Below are positions 2,231-27,913 of a stretch of 64,000 nt of DNA, in pieces. This stretch comes from Escherichia phage VEc20. The notes beneath the pieces were generated by a model, which did no database searches, was not told the DNA's origin, and saw only the letters and a list, made by a program, of their open reading frames with translations. Made by a program: the position numbers and the translations under genes. Location: sequence record MN022785.1. One strand, given 5' to 3'. Position 1 is the first letter of the stretch. Each line of letters starts with the position of its first letter.

Positions 2231-3855
<1,625 letters not shown>

Positions 3856-3856
<1 letters not shown>

Positions 3857-4095
3857 TGGAAGGTTTAATTGAAGCTATTAAATCAAACGACCTCGTAGCC
3901 GCTCGTAAATTATTTGCTGAAGCCATGGCTGCAAGAACGACTGATTTAATTAAAGAAGAAAAAATCGCTATCGCTCGTAATTTCTTAATCGAAGGTGAAG
4001 AACCTGATGACGAGGATGATGACGAAGACGAAGATAGTGATGATAAAGACGACAAAAAAGACAAAGACTCTGACGAAGACGAGGATGATGAATAA
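3856..4095 (+). CDS. 67: prohead core protein with polyacidic C-terminus
   Basis: 79 aa, D/E-rich tail; ATG overlaps gene 20 stop (TAATG). Confidence 0.75.
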
Positions 4096-4520
4096 TGCTT
4101 CTGATCCCTGAAACTCATGAATTAGTTCTCGAGAATGTCGAAGCACTTATTCCTGAAGCACAGGGTCGCTTTGACGAATTGTCTTCTGCTTTAAATAAAG
4201 ACGATATAAATACAATTGTCGAGAATATGCTTGATGATGAAACTGATTTAGCGGTTGCATTAGCTTCTATTAATGAAAATATGCCGTTAAATGAATTTAT
4301 CGTTAAACATGTTTCCGCCCGTGGTGAAATTACTCGCACTAAAGACCGCAAAACGCGTGAACGTAATGCATTTCAAACCACTGGGCTGTCTAAAGCAAAA
4401 CGTAGACAAATTGCTCGTAAAGCTACCAAAACGAAGATTGCCAATCCAGCAGGTCAATCTCGTGCTCAGCGTAAGCGTAAAAAAGCTCTTAAACGCCGTA
4501 AAGCATTAGGATTAAGCTAA
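4095..4520 (+). CDS. 68: prohead core protein
   Basis: 141 aa, basic C-terminus; start overlaps gp67 stop; synteny. Confidence 0.7.
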
Positions 4521-5158
4521 TGAATGAACCCCAATTACTAATTGAAACTTGGGGTCAACCTGGCGAAATTATTGATGGCGTACCAATGCTTGAATCTCAC
4601 GATGGAAAAGACTTAGGTTTAAAACCGGGTTTATACATCGAAGGAATATTCATGCAAGCGGAAGTCGTCAATAGAAATAAACGTCTTTATCCAAAACGTA
4701 TATTAGAAAAAGCGGTAAAAGACTATATTAATGAGCAAGTTTTAACTAAACAAGCTCTCGGAGAATTAAATCATCCTCCACGCGCTAATGTTGACCCGAT
4801 GCAAGCCGCTATCATTATAGAAGATATGTGGTGGAAAGGAAATGACGTATACGGACGAGCTCGTGTTATTGAAGGTGACCATGGTCCTGGAGATAAATTA
4901 GCAGCTAATATTCGTGCCGGATGGATTCCAGGAGTTTCTTCTCGTGGATTAGGTTCATTGACTGACACGAATAAAGGTTATCGTATCGTAAACGAAGGAT
5001 TCAAATTAACTGTAGGTGTTGATGCAGTATGGGGTCCAAGTGCTCCAGATGCATGGGTAACTCCTAAGGAAATTACCGAATCACAGACGGCGGAAGCCGA
5101 TACAAGTGCCGATGACGCCTATATGGCTCTCGCAGAGGCCATGAAAAAAGCGTTATAA
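4520..5158 (+). CDS. 21: prohead core protease
   Basis: 212 aa; position between 68 and 22; resembles T4 gp21 from memory. Confidence 0.85.
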   Translation: MNEPQLLIETWGQPGEIIDGVPMLESHDGKDLGLKPGLYIEGIFMQAEVVNRNKRLYPKRILEKAVKDYINEQVLTKQALGELNHPPRANVDPMQAAIIIEDMWWKGNDVYGRARVIEGDHGPGDKLAANIRAGWIPGVSSRGLGSLTDTNKGYRIVNEGFKLTVGVDAVWGPSAPDAWVTPKEITESQTAEADTSADDAYMALAEAMKKAL

Positions 5159-22413: not shown

Positions 22414-23378
22414 TGTATTCTTTAGAGGAATTTAATAATCAAGCAATAAACGCAGATTTCCAACGTAATAATATGTTTAGCTGCGTTTTTGCAACAACTC
22501 CATCAACTAAAAGCTCTTCGTTGATAAGTTCAATTAGCAACTTTTCTTATAATAACTTGGGCCTAAATTCAGATTGGTTAGGATTAACTCAAGGTGATAT
22601 TAATCAGGGAATTACCACGCTAATTACAGCTGGCACACAAAAACTGATAAGAAAATCAGGGGTTAGTAAATATCTTATTGGTGCCATGAGTCAACGTACA
22701 GTTCAAAGTTTATTAGGCTCATTTACAGTTGGTACATATTTAATTGACTTCTTTAACATGGCATATAACTCATCTGGATTGATGATATATTCTGTAAAAA
22801 TGCCAGAGAACAGATTATCCTATGAAACTGACTGGAACTATAATTCTCCTAATATTCGTATAACCGGAAGAGAATTAGACCCTTTGGTTATTTCATTTAG
22901 AATGGATTCAGAAGCTTGTAACTATCGTGCAATGCAAGACTGGGTTAACTCTGTTCAAGACCCAGTAACTGGACTGCGTGCTTTGCCGCAAGATGTCGAG
23001 GCAGATATTCAGGTTAATCTTCATTCTCGCAATGGATTACCACATACTGCGGTGATGTTCACTGGATGCATTCCAGTGTCCGTAAGCGCTCCTGAGTTAT
23101 CATATGATGGAGATAACCAAATAACTACATTTGATGTTACTTTTGCGTATAGAGTGATGCAGGCTGGAGCAGTTGATAGACAAGCTGCCCTTGAATGGCT
23201 TGAATCTGCTACTATAAATGGTATTCAAAGCGTTCTCGGAAATAGTGGAGGTGTTACTGGACTATCTAATTCGCTTTCACGACTTAGTAGATTAGGGGGA
23301 ACTGCAGGAAGCATTTCAAACATTAATACTATGACAGGAATTGTCAATTCGCAAAGTAAAATATTAGGAGCAATATAA
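22413..23378 (+). CDS. 54: baseplate tail tube initiator
   Basis: 321 aa; synteny. Confidence 0.8.
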   Translation: MYSLEEFNNQAINADFQRNNMFSCVFATTPSTKSSSLISSISNFSYNNLGLNSDWLGLTQGDINQGITTLITAGTQKLIRKSGVSKYLIGAMSQRTVQSLLGSFTVGTYLIDFFNMAYNSSGLMIYSVKMPENRLSYETDWNYNSPNIRITGRELDPLVISFRMDSEACNYRAMQDWVNSVQDPVTGLRALPQDVEADIQVNLHSRNGLPHTAVMFTGCIPVSVSAPELSYDGDNQITTFDVTFAYRVMQAGAVDRQAALEWLESATINGIQSVLGNSGGVTGLSNSLSRLSRLGGTAGSISNINTMTGIVNSQSKILGAI

Positions 23379-23382
23379 CAAC

Positions 23383-23400
23383 GGGGACCTTTCGGTCCCC
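23383..23400. terminator. hairpin GGGGACC-TTTC-GGTCCCC between convergent gene 54 and alt operon
   Basis: perfect 7-bp stem followed by T-run. Confidence 0.5.
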
Positions 23401-23406
23401 ATATTT

Positions 23407-23697
23407 TTATTTGCGGAATGAAATGAAAGCAGAAACTGAAGCAACTAAACTGTCTTCAATATAAACTTCAATTTTTACCGGAGCTTCTGACTCAAATTTA
23501 CCTGTTACTACACCCTGAAAAATACTTTCAGTCTGTTCTGGCTTTGAAAAATTTTCAGAAGGAAAAATTCCGAACTTTTTATCTGTTCCAAAAATTTTAA
23601 TAAATTCATCGTAAACCGCTTCGTTAAAAGCATTATCAGCAGGAATAACGCCTTCAACTACAAGTTCTTGACCTAAAAAGCGTAAAGAAGATTTCAT
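23407..23697 (-). CDS. hypothetical protein (alt.-3-like position)
   Basis: 96-aa ORF; GAGGA about 6 nt upstream of ATG. Confidence 0.5.
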   Translation of the reverse strand: MKSSLRFLGQELVVEGVIPADNAFNEAVYDEFIKIFGTDKKFGIFPSENFSKPEQTESIFQGVVTGKFESEAPVKIEVYIEDSLVASVSAFISFRK

Positions 23698-23704
23698 TTT
23701 GTGT

Positions 23705-23758
23705 TCCTCATGTTATGTCAGTAAGACTACTATAACACAACACGAGGGACTTGTAAAC
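23705..23758 (-). repeat. copy A of a perfect 54-bp repeat carrying a sigma70-type early promoter and Shine-Dalgarno leader
   Basis: identical 54-mer also at 37981-38034; minus strand reads GTTTAC-18nt-TATAGT (TGn-extended) then GAGGA. Confidence 0.8.
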
Positions 23759-24115
23759 TACATTTTGAACTTTTTAGTACGCGGAATAGGCATGCGTCGA
23801 TTTTATACTGTTTCATTGTTTGAAGAGCAGTATCAAAAACAGCATTAATGACACCAATTGGATTTCCACTCAAGTTTTTAAGCTTAACTAATGATAGTTT
23901 CTCATTAACACCTATCATTACGATATGCATCATTTTATCGCCTGGTTTAACGTTTTATTTGTATCACCGTCAGAGGTGTATGTACAAAATCTAAATCCAG
24001 GAAGTACGCTTTCTTCACCGGCTTGAATAGCAAAAATTTGAGGTATTTTATGCTTAGGATTTAAGTTAACAACCGGCGCCGAAGCGCCGTCAAATAATTC
24101 TGTAATAAGTTCCAT
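23730..24115 (-). pseudogene. truncated, frameshifted paralog of the Alt N-terminal region (two ORFs of 61 and 67 aa)
   Basis: the two ORFs align to Alt residues about 1-60 and 64-120 but are in different frames, overlapping by 4 nt. Confidence 0.55.
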
Positions 24116-24118
24116 GAT

Positions 24119-26215
24119 TTATCCTTGAACGAACTTGTAAGGCATGTTTGTAATATCTATGCAAGACGCAATAATTCCAAGAGATGATTCGACTTTCTGT
24201 TTAACATTTGATGAAACAAATGATGCAAAATCAACTCTATCTTCTATTTCAATATCACCAGTCATTGCAACTACTTCACCAGTTTCCATTAGACGGTCAC
24301 CGTCATAAATTACTGATTCGGTGAGTTCTTCCGTAGTCATAACTTCAGCTTGAATGAGTTTTGTATTATTAGATGTTGTTCCGTCGTTATTAGAAGCATC
24401 AGTTATTTTATTGACTTTGACCATCAATCCACGCGGTAGAATAACTTCAGCTTCTGTTGCTATTCCGAGACTTCCTGGATATACAACATTAACTTTATGA
24501 GCTCCATCAATTGCCCATCCTATTTGAACTTTAACGTATTCAGGATTTTCTTTATACGCTCTTATTTCGTTTGGATTAATAGTTATTCCTTCTTCATTTT
24601 TATCAACTGTTAATTCATTGCGAGCTTCTGGTTCTAAAAGACCAATACCAGCATGTGTAATTCCAAAACGTCCAAAAATGATAGGAGTTAAAGAAGTAGA
24701 TACAAAATTTCTGAAATAGAATACTTTATTTTTAACTAGTGCTTCGTATATAGGAGCAGTCATACTTTGAGCACGATAAACTGTAATGCCTTCTGGTATA
24801 CGATCACCATTTTCAAAAGCAGAATCTAAATTAGTTATAGCAGCTTCAATTTCTTTTTCACTCATTACTTCATAACGTTCTGGATCATAACGACCCAAAA
24901 GAAGATTATTGATGTCAGTATATCCTGAACCGCAATACTCTCTAATGCCACGCTTTTGTGATGGAGTATATTTAGAACCATCACGGGCAATAGTAATATC
25001 AATCATTGGACCTGCACCAATTCCAGAGAAACTATAAATCATTCTTTTGAGGAATTTAGTTTTTGTCGCGTTCCAGGAATTTTTAGTTATTTCTTCCCAG
25101 ACTTCATCTGGCTGTCCTTTACGGGTTTTATTATGTTTATCAAGCCAAGTATCTTTATATTCTTCAAATAATTGATTAACAGCTGCTGCGTATTTCTCTA
25201 AACATTTTATTGAAGTAGTCGGTTCATTTTTAATCGCATTAAGAATTACATCTTTAATTTTTTCAGAAACTTCATTAACCTCACTTTTTGAAAAGAATTT
25301 ATAGTCATAATGAAGTTCATCTGCAGTTCCTTCGGCAATGATTTTTGCTGCCTTAGTTTTAGAAGCTAATGAATTAATTCCAATTTTCATTTCTTCTGCT
25401 TCGGGAATTAAAGGTGCAGTAGCTGGTTTATTAAAATTAGCTGCTGTAGATTCATACTTCTGGAATAATTCACTTTCAAATCTAGAAGACTCTAATGATT
25501 GACTTTGTGCAATTGCTCTACGGGAAATTTTAACTTTAACGATTACAGCTTGGTCAGAACGTTTATCATTTTCTTGTGCAATAGATGCTGCAATTGCCTC
25601 ATTTTTAGTTACTTGAGCTCCAGTATCTTTATTGATATAAACATCACCGACCTTCGATTCAACTTTAGTAAAGAGCTCGGTACTAATTTCCGGAACCCCT
25701 GGAATGTCTTCTAGTGATACATTTTTGCGATGTATAAGAATATATGCATACTTTTTATCATAATCCCAGAGTTCCTTAAGAAGGACGTATCTGCCACCTG
25801 AACGACTACGGATAAGTCTATCAGCAATAACTTGAATTTGTCGAGCTTGACCAGCAGTTTTAGACTTAAGAATACGGAGCATACAGGCATCAATTTTATA
25901 CTGACGCATTGTTTGCATTGCAACAGTAAAAACCGAATTGATATAATTAATTGGGCTTGGACCAAGACCTTTCAATTTAGCAATTGAACCTTTAGCGGTT
26001 AATGTAAAAGGAACAATATGCATCATTTTATCGCCCATCTTTAAATCACGATTAGTATCACCTCCAGATGTATAGGTACATAAACGAAAGCCTGGTTGTT
26101 CAATTGCATCATCAACATGAACTGAAAAAATTTGTGGTATTTTCTTCTTTGGATTTAAGTTTGTAATCGGAAGAGTAGTATCTTCGTCAAATAATTCTGT
26201 AATTAGTTCCATCAT
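24119..26215 (-). CDS. alt: Alt ADP-ribosyltransferase (virion-packaged)
   Basis: 698 aa; N-terminus MELITELF...; resembles T4 Alt from memory; synteny. Confidence 0.85.
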   Translation of the reverse strand: MMELITELFDEDTTLPITNLNPKKKIPQIFSVHVDDAIEQPGFRLCTYTSGGDTNRDLKMGDKMMHIVPFTLTAKGSIAKLKGLGPSPINYINSVFTVAMQTMRQYKIDACMLRILKSKTAGQARQIQVIADRLIRSRSGGRYVLLKELWDYDKKYAYILIHRKNVSLEDIPGVPEISTELFTKVESKVGDVYINKDTGAQVTKNEAIAASIAQENDKRSDQAVIVKVKISRRAIAQSQSLESSRFESELFQKYESTAANFNKPATAPLIPEAEEMKIGINSLASKTKAAKIIAEGTADELHYDYKFFSKSEVNEVSEKIKDVILNAIKNEPTTSIKCLEKYAAAVNQLFEEYKDTWLDKHNKTRKGQPDEVWEEITKNSWNATKTKFLKRMIYSFSGIGAGPMIDITIARDGSKYTPSQKRGIREYCGSGYTDINNLLLGRYDPERYEVMSEKEIEAAITNLDSAFENGDRIPEGITVYRAQSMTAPIYEALVKNKVFYFRNFVSTSLTPIIFGRFGITHAGIGLLEPEARNELTVDKNEEGITINPNEIRAYKENPEYVKVQIGWAIDGAHKVNVVYPGSLGIATEAEVILPRGLMVKVNKITDASNNDGTTSNNTKLIQAEVMTTEELTESVIYDGDRLMETGEVVAMTGDIEIEDRVDFASFVSSNVKQKVESSLGIIASCIDITNMPYKFVQG

Positions 26216-26250
26216 ATCCTCTCTAGTGTTTATTCTATTTATAAAATTAA

Positions 26251-26265
26251 AGGCCCGAAGGCCTT
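26251..26265 (-). terminator. GC hairpin AGGCC-CGAA-GGCCT
   Basis: seen in sequence. Confidence 0.35.
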
Positions 26266-26453
26266 TAGTAATCTAGTGGTAAGAGAGTACGATATATTTC
26301 AAACTTTGGTCCTTTTTCATAGGCATCAAATGTTTCTGTAAATTTATTATAAGCGTATGCATCTACAAATTCGAGAATGACTTGTGATACAGAAGTAGAA
26401 ACATCTCCACCTTCTTTTTGAGCAATGACAATTGTTTCTAAGTAAGCTTTCAT
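26265..26453 (-). CDS. hypothetical small protein
   Basis: 62-aa ORF; start overlaps ligase stop. Confidence 0.45.
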   Translation of the reverse strand: MKAYLETIVIAQKEGGDVSTSVSQVILEFVDAYAYNKFTETFDAYEKGPKFEIYRTLLPLDY

Positions 26454-27913
26454 AGACCAGTTACCTCATGAAAATCACCAAATACATCCTCGAATGTATT
26501 AGCTTTAGTTTTATCTTCACGTAAACGAATCGCAATCGGAAGAAATAATTTAACGTAATCAGTGCGGCCATCAGATTTTAACCAACCGTTGCATTCGCAC
26601 TCTAGAATTTTTCCAATATAATAATTTTGGTTTTCCATAATGCGAGTACGGTCAAGTTCATGTGATTTTACACCGGCTTTATCTTTTAAGCCTGAACCAG
26701 CATTTACCTTAATTTTTCCACACTCTGACTCAAGAATAAATCCACCCGCTTTAGTAGGGTCTTTACGGTGAGGATAAATTCCTACAATTTTTAAATCAAC
26801 ATCAATTACTTCTTTAAATTTATAGAGATTTTTTGAACGAGCATTTTCCCATAATCCATCGATATTTTTGAGAATAATACCTTCAAGACCTTGGTCAATA
26901 TACTTTTTATAAATTACCTTAGCTTCATCTAGGTTATTTACTACCTGGTTTTCAATTAAAATTACTTTATCATAGCCTGATGTCATTTGTTCTAGTTTAG
27001 AAAAACGTACATCATATTTTAAACGAAACGCCGGAAGACCGTATATTTCTACCAACGGGACATAATCCCAGACCTGAAACTTCATGCATTGAGCTTCTTT
27101 TTCGGAAATGGTTCCCTTTAAAGATTTATTAGCGATTCCATTAGAAGTAGTACGTGATTCAGCTACTTCGGCGAATTCTTTGGCTTTACTAATTTCAGGA
27201 TAAGCATCAAAAAGAAAATCTAGGCCTTCTGGCTCCTTTTTAACTTGCTCATGGTATACCAATTCGCCATCAATTAACACGCCTTCTGGATGAATCTGGC
27301 GGGCTTCAGCGGTCATTTTGATTAATTCTTCCTTAAGAAGATCTAATCCTAGATATTCATTACCGGCTCGTGATAAAAGACGAACATCATCTAATTCATC
27401 ACCTCTGACTTCGGCAAAGCACCGAGCCCCATCAGCTTTTAACTGGGCAAAGGCTGGAAATTTGATATTCTTATTAATGCCTTTTTCATCATAAGAACTT
27501 GCCAGCATTTGAGGTTGTTCAGGAATTAAACCTGGCCAAACTTTGTTTGCAATAGATACTGAAGCACCACATTCAAGGTCTCGCATCATCACTCGACGCA
27601 AAACTTCAACATCATCTTTTTTACCATCGGTGATATATCCAGTTAATTCCTCAATTGCTGCATTTCCAGTCAATTTCCGAGTAGCTAATGTGAATTCAAT
27701 GAAGTCAAGCATATCGGTAAGAGTCAACATTCCAAAACTCTGGGTAGCAATACCAGGTTTAGGCCATTTCTTGATATAATACTGCAGCCCACGAGAATAA
27801 GTCAGACGATATACTCGTTTAAGCAATTCATTATCTTTATTCTTTTCAAGAATTGCTTGCTTCTGCTTAGTTGAACCAATAGATGCTATTTCGTTCAGAA
27901 TTTTAAGAATCAT
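26450..27913 (-). CDS. 30: ATP-dependent DNA ligase
   Basis: 487 aa; adenylation motif KADGAR; N-terminus matches T4 ligase from memory. Confidence 0.9.
   Translation of the reverse strand: MILKILNEIASIGSTKQKQAILEKNKDNELLKRVYRLTYSRGLQYYIKKWPKPGIATQSFGMLTLTDMLDFIEFTLATRKLTGNAAIEELTGYITDGKKDDVEVLRRVMMRDLECGASVSIANKVWPGLIPEQPQMLASSYDEKGINKNIKFPAFAQLKADGARCFAEVRGDELDDVRLLSRAGNEYLGLDLLKEELIKMTAEARQIHPEGVLIDGELVYHEQVKKEPEGLDFLFDAYPEISKAKEFAEVAESRTTSNGIANKSLKGTISEKEAQCMKFQVWDYVPLVEIYGLPAFRLKYDVRFSKLEQMTSGYDKVILIENQVVNNLDEAKVIYKKYIDQGLEGIILKNIDGLWENARSKNLYKFKEVIDVDLKIVGIYPHRKDPTKAGGFILESECGKIKVNAGSGLKDKAGVKSHELDRTRIMENQNYYIGKILECECNGWLKSDGRTDYVKLFLPIAIRLREDKTKANTFEDVFGDFHEVTGL

Follow-up and report, generated by a model that had tools for sequence, protein, structure and literature searches.

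A probable decayed remnant of a second full-length Alt-family gene between alt and alt.-3 in Escherichia phage VEc20

The window analysed here, a 64,000-nucleotide stretch of Escherichia phage VEc20 (MN022785.1), is a segment of a T4-type (Tequatrovirus) genome whose gene order around the locus is that of T4 (29, 48, 54 / alt.-3, alt.-2, alt.-1, alt, alt.1, 30), with genes 29, 48 and 54 on the plus strand and alt.-3, a 67-aa ORF, a 61-aa ORF, alt, alt.1 and DNA ligase on the minus strand. The alt gene (24119..26215, minus strand) encodes an intact 698-aa ADP-ribosyltransferase with a Pfam PF03496 ADPrib_exo_Tox match at residues 379-628 (E=1.9e-36), carries the annotation alt in T4 and is the upstream, functional member of a tandem pair. 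Three nucleotides after its stop codon starts the stub studied here, which lies on the same strand between alt and alt.-3. It holds the alt.-1 ORF (61 aa, 23930..24115) and the alt.-2 ORF (67 aa, 23730..23933), both taken from the ORF list, which are read in different minus-strand frames and overlap by 4 nucleotides (ATGA), as the earlier note had described them. Next comes alt.-3 (23407..23697, minus strand), which encodes a 96-aa DUF5498 protein of unknown function (Pfam PF17602, E=5e-64); it adjoins intact paralogs as well as stubs, and is a conserved, expressed downstream neighbour outside the pseudogene. Between alt.-3 and gene 54 a terminator scan placed a bidirectional intrinsic terminator (23381..23402), a feature that the records of phages SP1 and e11/2 also annotate. 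Upstream of alt, a motif scan found the T4 late-promoter motif TATAAATA (26236..26243, minus strand) just after a terminator-like hairpin (26248-26267).

In BLASTP comparisons with the window's 698-aa Alt, the ORF at 23930-24115 aligned to residues 2-63 (58% identity, E=2e-22) and the ORF at 23730-23933 to residues 64-118 (58% identity, E=3e-20). The homology of both small ORFs to Alt is far beyond chance, as the earlier note had proposed from the letters; the absence of a significant alignment, which it had named as evidence against itself, is the reverse of what was found. Among the strings it listed as shared, ELITELFD, NLNPK.KIPQIF and MMHIV were recovered, while the last should read QTM.QYKIDAC, its leading M being present in Alt only. 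Nucleotide alignment of the stub to the alt 5' region gave an identity of about 73%, indicating that the stub is neither a recent nor a partial copy of alt, and the indel that the earlier note expected to find in such an alignment is a 1-nt loss in an A5 run, seen against the paralog described below. Pfam scanning of alt.-1, alt.-2 and a repaired 128-aa stub returned no domain, while Alt and the intact paralog both match PF03496. The stub thus retains homology to the Alt N-terminal module and is devoid of the ART catalytic domain with its R, S-T-S and E-x-E motifs; being frameshifted as well, the window locus cannot encode an enzyme.

A megablast of window 23380-24400 against 50,697 phage records matched 521 of them. 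The match was contiguous over the stub in about 90 of the 521, and the remaining records (roughly 400) matched only from the position of window 23769 and are annotated with two Alt-like ADP-ribosyltransferase genes. Where the window has the stub, a full-length Alt paralog of 685 aa that includes an ART domain is present in about 400 of about 500 Tequatrovirus genomes. In teqhad and RB27 it is a 2,058-nt gene between alt and alt.-3, the annotations of T6, phiD1, G29, JK08, Shfl2 and RB5 show this gene at the same length, and intact 685-aa / 2,058-nt orthologs occupy the locus in two IMG/VR genomes. Ten full-length genes were inspected, four translated whole to 685 aa and six annotated at 2,058 nt, and all ten were intact over the 116 N-terminal codons kept in the stub. 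Compared end to end, the paralog has 41% identity to Alt, and the YR, STS and EAE motifs of the two line up; with a PF03496 (ADPrib_exo_Tox) match over residues 416-620 as well, the paralog is a credible enzyme. Its N-terminus is the part best conserved between the paralogs (58% vs 41% overall). The window stub is 96-98% identical to this paralog in nucleotide sequence, versus only about 73% to alt, and gene conversion from alt as a recent source of the stub was rejected by the same figures.

A more distant T-even relative, L030 (IMGVR_UViG_2974573174_000001, 2601-4730), is 66% identical in the stub region, and a 1-nt deletion at nt 1143 (GG to G) breaks its ortholog of the second paralog into two ORFs of 392 and 327 aa. 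The second paralog is intact (707 aa) in L031 and L032. The split in L030 reflects either a sequencing error or another, independent pseudogenisation.

Alignment by blastn located both lesions of the stub. Over its first 363 nt the stub aligns to the 5' end of the teqhad paralog at 96% identity, interrupted by one gap only, the loss of one A from an A5 run that leaves the A4 run at window 23953-23956 (minus strand), also seen in the carrier alignment. The 398 nt that follow match, at 97% identity, the last 17 nt of the teqhad paralog, its stop codon, the spacer and alt.-3. These two segments overlap by exactly the 9-nt CTAAAAAGT at window 23769-23777, which is the sole copy remaining on the minus strand of the stub, while a repeat search found CTAAAAAGT twice in the intact paralogs of teqhad and RB27, at CDS nt 340 and 2039, that is, 1,699 bp apart. 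A 1,699-bp deletion between 9-bp direct repeats has removed paralog codons 117-685, including the middle part and the whole catalytic domain. CTAAAAAGT is one among many chance 9-10-nt direct repeats in the paralog gene (family D13, spacing 1699). A single leftover repeat copy is the classic signature of microhomology-mediated deletion, and we infer this mechanism for the stub. Since 1,699 is 3n+1, the stub runs out of frame past the old TAG stop of the full-length paralog (23758..23760, minus strand), which was placed by the blastn alignment and by the paralog C-terminus ...SKKFKM*.

Both small ORFs can be read in terms of the lost gene. The alt.-1 ORF consists of paralog codons 1-54 followed by 7 out-of-frame codons (TLNQAIK) and TGA. 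The alt.-2 ORF starts at a conserved Met-Met (paralog codons 62-63), goes on through codon 116 and ends in a tail of 12 junk codons that cross the deletion junction, pass the former stop codon and enter the former intergenic region, with a stop at 23730-23732.

To follow the stub through its carriers, 25 further deletion loci were aligned with the window (T4, 18 other INPHARED records with SG1 included, two from IMG/VR and three Logan contigs). The 26 carriers were picked for diversity and are a non-exhaustive sample that comes mainly from INPHARED phage records; scans of IMG/VR gave 2 loci for the junction pattern and 8 loci for the stub protein. A word-index protein search with the repaired 128-aa stub returned two proteins, of which P0001 (92 aa, phage SG1) led to the alternative-lesion alleles. 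The other, P0002, is an 84-aa predicted protein from an 806-nt ENA contig with 33 residues identical to stub codons 48-80 (GGDTNKNVKPGDKMMHIVMIGVNEKLSLVKLKN) between unrelated flanks, and may come from a chimeric or misassembled contig or from another rearranged remnant.

The deletion junction was identical in 26 of 26 carriers, and behind it stood seven distinct secondary lesions (E2*, E6*, −1 deletions at codons 27, 54, 93 and 114, and a stop-loss). AV121 has no lesion and retains one intact 128-aa ORF, SG1 and AV119 have E6* only, one Logan contig has E2*, and two Logan contigs have a −1 deletion in a T-run at codon 27. The A-run −1 deletion at codon 54 is present in 20 of the 26 carriers, 10 of which also have E6*, and absent from AV121, AV119, SG1 and the three Logan contigs. 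A further −1 deletion at codon 93 in CE1, 235Ecol030PP and PD112 cuts alt.-2 to 39 aa; F25 has a −1 deletion at codon 114 on top of the A-run deletion, and ACG-C40, also an A-run deletion carrier, has lost the stop codon. Counted by consequence, a stop at codon 6 occurs in 12 of 26 carriers, a stop at codon 2 in one and a different frameshift in two, while alt.-2 is shortened to 39 aa in three and altered at its C-terminus in two. Both ORFs are open in 9 of the 26, the sub-lineage that includes T4 and the window. Neither small ORF is conserved as such. The intact stub of AV121 and the variety of lesions behind one junction suggest that the deletion came first and was followed by several independent hits. 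A single origin of the deletion is parsimonious, although not proven, and recurrent deletion at the same CTAAAAAGT repeats is conceivable.

Selection on the stub was assessed from variant counts over the 348 nt before the junction in 10 intact paralogs and 26 stubs. The intact paralogs showed 34 variants, 33 of them synonymous and 1 nonsynonymous, versus 21 synonymous and 18 nonsynonymous in the stubs (Fisher p=2.5e-5, on raw counts). Stub variants that are also found in intact genes comprise 18 synonymous and 1 nonsynonymous, while the stub-specific variants comprise 3 synonymous and 17 nonsynonymous, near the neutral expectation; in the alt.-2 part alone, 5 of 5 stub-specific substitutions are nonsynonymous. 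Selection was relaxed, or collapsed, after the deletion.

Several signals bear on the expression of the locus. A consensus scan found a putative early-type alt.-3 promoter at 23729..23757 (minus strand), in which TTTACA is separated by 17 nt from TGtTATAGT (sigma-70/T4-early-type, 10 of 12 consensus matches plus TG). The alt.-2 stop codon falls inside the −10 hexamer of this candidate. We infer from its sequence that the element acts as the alt.-3 promoter, and this role, not coding, probably explains the conserved alt.-2 tail. From the late-promoter motif at 26236-26243 down to the terminator at 23381-23402, the terminator scan gave no other convincing minus-strand terminator, which would place the stub inside an alt-to-alt.-3 transcription unit, as a passenger presumably transcribed between its two neighbours. 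A regular-expression search for a MotA box (middle promoter) just upstream of the stub found no site, and an Rfam scan of 23000-26600 gave nothing above chance. The alt.-1 ORF is preceded by a good Shine-Dalgarno match, AAGGA, and alt.-2 is placed for ATGA coupling, so that some translation is likely in the open-ORF sub-lineage; candidate peptides for detection are IPQIFAIQAGEESVLPGFR for Alt.-1 and NLSGNPIGVINAVFDTALQTMK for Alt.-2. Proteins of 61-67 aa are often missed by shotgun proteomics, and non-detection of Alt.-1 and Alt.-2 is therefore weak evidence. In the T4 time-course omics data of Wolfram-Schauerte et al. 2022 (PMC9697503, Tables S2 and S3), alt.-1 and alt.-2 RNAs are classed as 'middle', as is alt, a class that, with no MotA box at the stub, is best explained by read-through from alt. 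The T4 Alt.-1 and Alt.-2 proteins are given there as 'NA = not detected' (Table S2), at a size of 61-67 aa that is easily missed, and the LFQ value of Alt.-1 (Y12C) is zero in 24 of 24 samples (PMC9697503). In the same data Alt was detected as a late protein, and Alt.-3 has an early transcript and is an early abundant protein (PMC9697503).

Taken together, these results make it very probable that the segment 23730-24115 no longer functions and is what remains, as a pseudogene, of a second full-length ADP-ribosyltransferase gene of the Alt family, produced by a deletion between repeats and by subsequent decay. The two lesions relative to intact orthologs, the seven secondary lesions in 26 carriers and the 3:17 ratio of synonymous to nonsynonymous stub-specific variants all bear out the pseudogene that the earlier note had offered as one of its options. 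In the proposed course of events, the ancestral state would have been a second full-length Alt-family gene between alt and alt.-3, as in most T4-type phages. Illegitimate recombination between the chance 9-bp repeats CTAAAAAGT in the lineage of T4 and VEc20 would then have removed 1,699 bp and left a 128-codon stub reading out of frame via the old stop codon into the old intergenic spacer, at which point selection on the stub would have ceased. Replication slippage in the A5 run may later have dropped one base, creating the overlapping ORFs alt.-1 and alt.-2, while other lineages would have gained different nonsense and frameshift mutations. The stub DNA would still be transcribed because of its place between alt and the conserved gene alt.-3, whose early-type promoter would lie in the 3' end of the stub. 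No protein function need be invoked for the stub.

That the 5' half was truncated repeatedly and independently raises the possibility that the decay was not neutral but reflects selection against an N-terminal-only Alt fragment. A fragment of this kind that retained the module for gp21 cleavage and for targeting to the prohead core could rival Alt for the roughly 40 places in each head, and its inactivation would then be favoured. First hits of four kinds occur among the carriers (E2*, E6*, and −1 deletions at codons 27 and 54), and the intact 128-aa stub survives in one of 26. We regard this reading as unlikely; if true, it would locate the packaging signal of Alt in its N-terminal ~116 residues or in fewer.

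Less probable still, by our estimate, is that Alt.-1 and/or Alt.-2 are functional small proteins in the sub-lineage of T4 and the window, for example a packaged N-terminal fragment or a competitor of Alt, as the earlier note had suggested in speaking of a packaged fragment or decoy. The two open ORFs in 9 of 26 carriers and their usable translation signals fit this proposal, as do the position of the Alt N-terminus as the most conserved part between the paralogs and the removal of a small N-terminal peptide of gpAlt by gp21 (PMC9958956). However, 15 of 26 carriers have lost Alt.-1 to E2*, E6* or another frameshift, Alt.-2 is truncated or altered in 5 of 26, and the 17:3 excess of nonsynonymous over synonymous stub-specific substitutions and the lack of Pfam domains also speak against it. 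Neither protein was detected in the T4 time course in which the 96-aa Alt.-3 was abundant (PMC9697503), although small proteins are easily missed. The comparative data lend no support to a packaged fragment or decoy.

It is highly improbable that the stub is the decayed copy from a tandem duplication confined to the 5' part of alt, the first of the origins named in the earlier note. The stub does match Alt residues 2-118 only, and the T4 GenBank record speaks of 'a duplication of the first part of gene alt'. By contrast, the stub resembles the 5' end of the full-length paralog at the same position far more closely than alt, its tail consists of the final 17 nt of the paralog with the stop codon and the spacer behind them, and the 9-bp direct repeat stands at both deletion ends in the intact genes. 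The parent is therefore a complete, old and diverged 685-aa paralog that is intact in most relatives. A partial duplication from which the full-length genes arose by secondary fusion is disfavoured by the 41% end-to-end homology to Alt, which in practice also excludes the formation of the 685-aa genes by insertion into a short ancestral gene. The earlier note had held that a single intact conserved ORF in related phages would overturn its proposal; such ORFs exist (the 685-aa gene, and the 128-aa ORF of AV121), and they dispose of the partial-duplication origin but leave the pseudogene standing.

A programmed −1 ribosomal frameshift at A-AAA-TGA that would fuse alt.-1 to alt.-2 and restore a 128-aa N-terminal module, the frameshift-dependent product of the earlier note, has a negligible chance of being real: alt.-2 does lie in the −1 frame relative to alt.-1, and slippage in the P-site is chemically possible with AAA as last sense codon, an A before it and a stop after it, but the canonical X-XXY-YYZ heptamer is absent, the A4 run is merely a mutated A5 run so that the site does not exist in intact genes, 10 of the 20 A-run carriers also have a stop at codon 6 and 4 of 20 have further downstream frameshifts, most carriers have upstream nonsense or downstream frameshifts, and the Rfam scan matched no structured element at the site.

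The neighbouring alt gene also varies. The alt allele encodes 698 aa in the window (24119-26215) versus 682 aa in T4 (L001, 4221-6269), and the alt alleles of the carriers come in at least three CDS lengths (2,049, 2,088 and 2,094 nt as annotated), the window ORF being 2,097 nt long. The presence of the stub beside different alt alleles suggests recombination around the locus. In ECML-134 (L042, JX128259, 1160-3220) a single, chimeric alt-family gene lies between alt.1 and alt.-3; over the first ~450 nt it has 99% identity to alt, and from there on 93-99% identity to the second paralog. It looks like the product of an unequal crossover between the conserved N-terminal modules that deleted the catalytic part of Alt, a loss opposite to that in T4 and the window.

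Stub ORFs of 61-128 aa are labelled 'RNA polymerase-ADP-ribosyltransferase' or 'ADP-ribosyltransferase' in several GenBank records despite having no catalytic domain, for example in AV121 (L010), ELT1 (L012), F25 (L014) and HMD-9 (L027), and the HMD-9 record gives alt.-3 the name 'tail length tape-measure protein'. Such labels are annotation errors and are likely to spread. The two small ORFs are better labelled pseudogene fragments of the second Alt paralog than hypothetical proteins or 'ADP-ribosyltransferase'. Most relatives of the reference phage T4 (T6, RB27, Shfl2 and others) still encode a fourth ADP-ribosyltransferase that is missing from T4 itself, a point that matters where findings on phage ADP-ribosylation are generalised from T4. 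The locus shows clearly how a gene of a lytic phage can undergo a microhomology deletion and then decay step by step, and its practical value lies mainly in annotation and in understanding the turnover of T-even accessory genes.

The feature is real, ordinary and already annotated in T4. The small ORFs of VEc20 are T4 alt.-1 and alt.-2 (UniProt P39495 and P39494; GenBank AF158101, 123065-123450), which agree with those of the window in position, lengths (61 + 67 aa), ATGA overlap, A-run frameshift and junction; a 433-nt region is 98.2-98.6% identical to T4, with a handful of substitutions between the two stubs, and 100% identical to several recent isolates. According to the T4 GenBank record, the beginning of alt was duplicated long ago, and alt.-1 and alt.-2 together are what the copy became once a stop codon had entered it. 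In Nolan et al. 2006 (PMC1524935), the only paper that a literature search on alt.-2 and the UniProt accessions turned up, both are entered among the paralogous duplications, as copies of alt. The present analysis refines the T4 note by deriving the stub from a truncated full-length gene instead of a partial duplication, with exact breakpoints and a decay series. Compared with T4 gpAlt, the packaged and injected R-S-E ADP-ribosyltransferase, the stub shares a homologous N-terminal module (58% over about 117 residues), but the two are paralogous and not orthologous, the stub has no catalytic domain, and nucleotide identity is about 73% at best. The full-length paralog, named 'alt.-2' in RB27, RB5 and RB51 and 'Alt-like RNA polymerase ADP-ribosyltransferase' in RefSeq (e.g. 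teqhad YP_010074398, T6 BBF63615), sits at the orthologous locus and is 96-97% identical to the window over the first 116 codons and over the last 17 nt plus spacer, whereas 1,699 bp of it (codons 117-685 with the PF03496 catalytic domain) are missing from the window, which also has a 1-nt frameshift.
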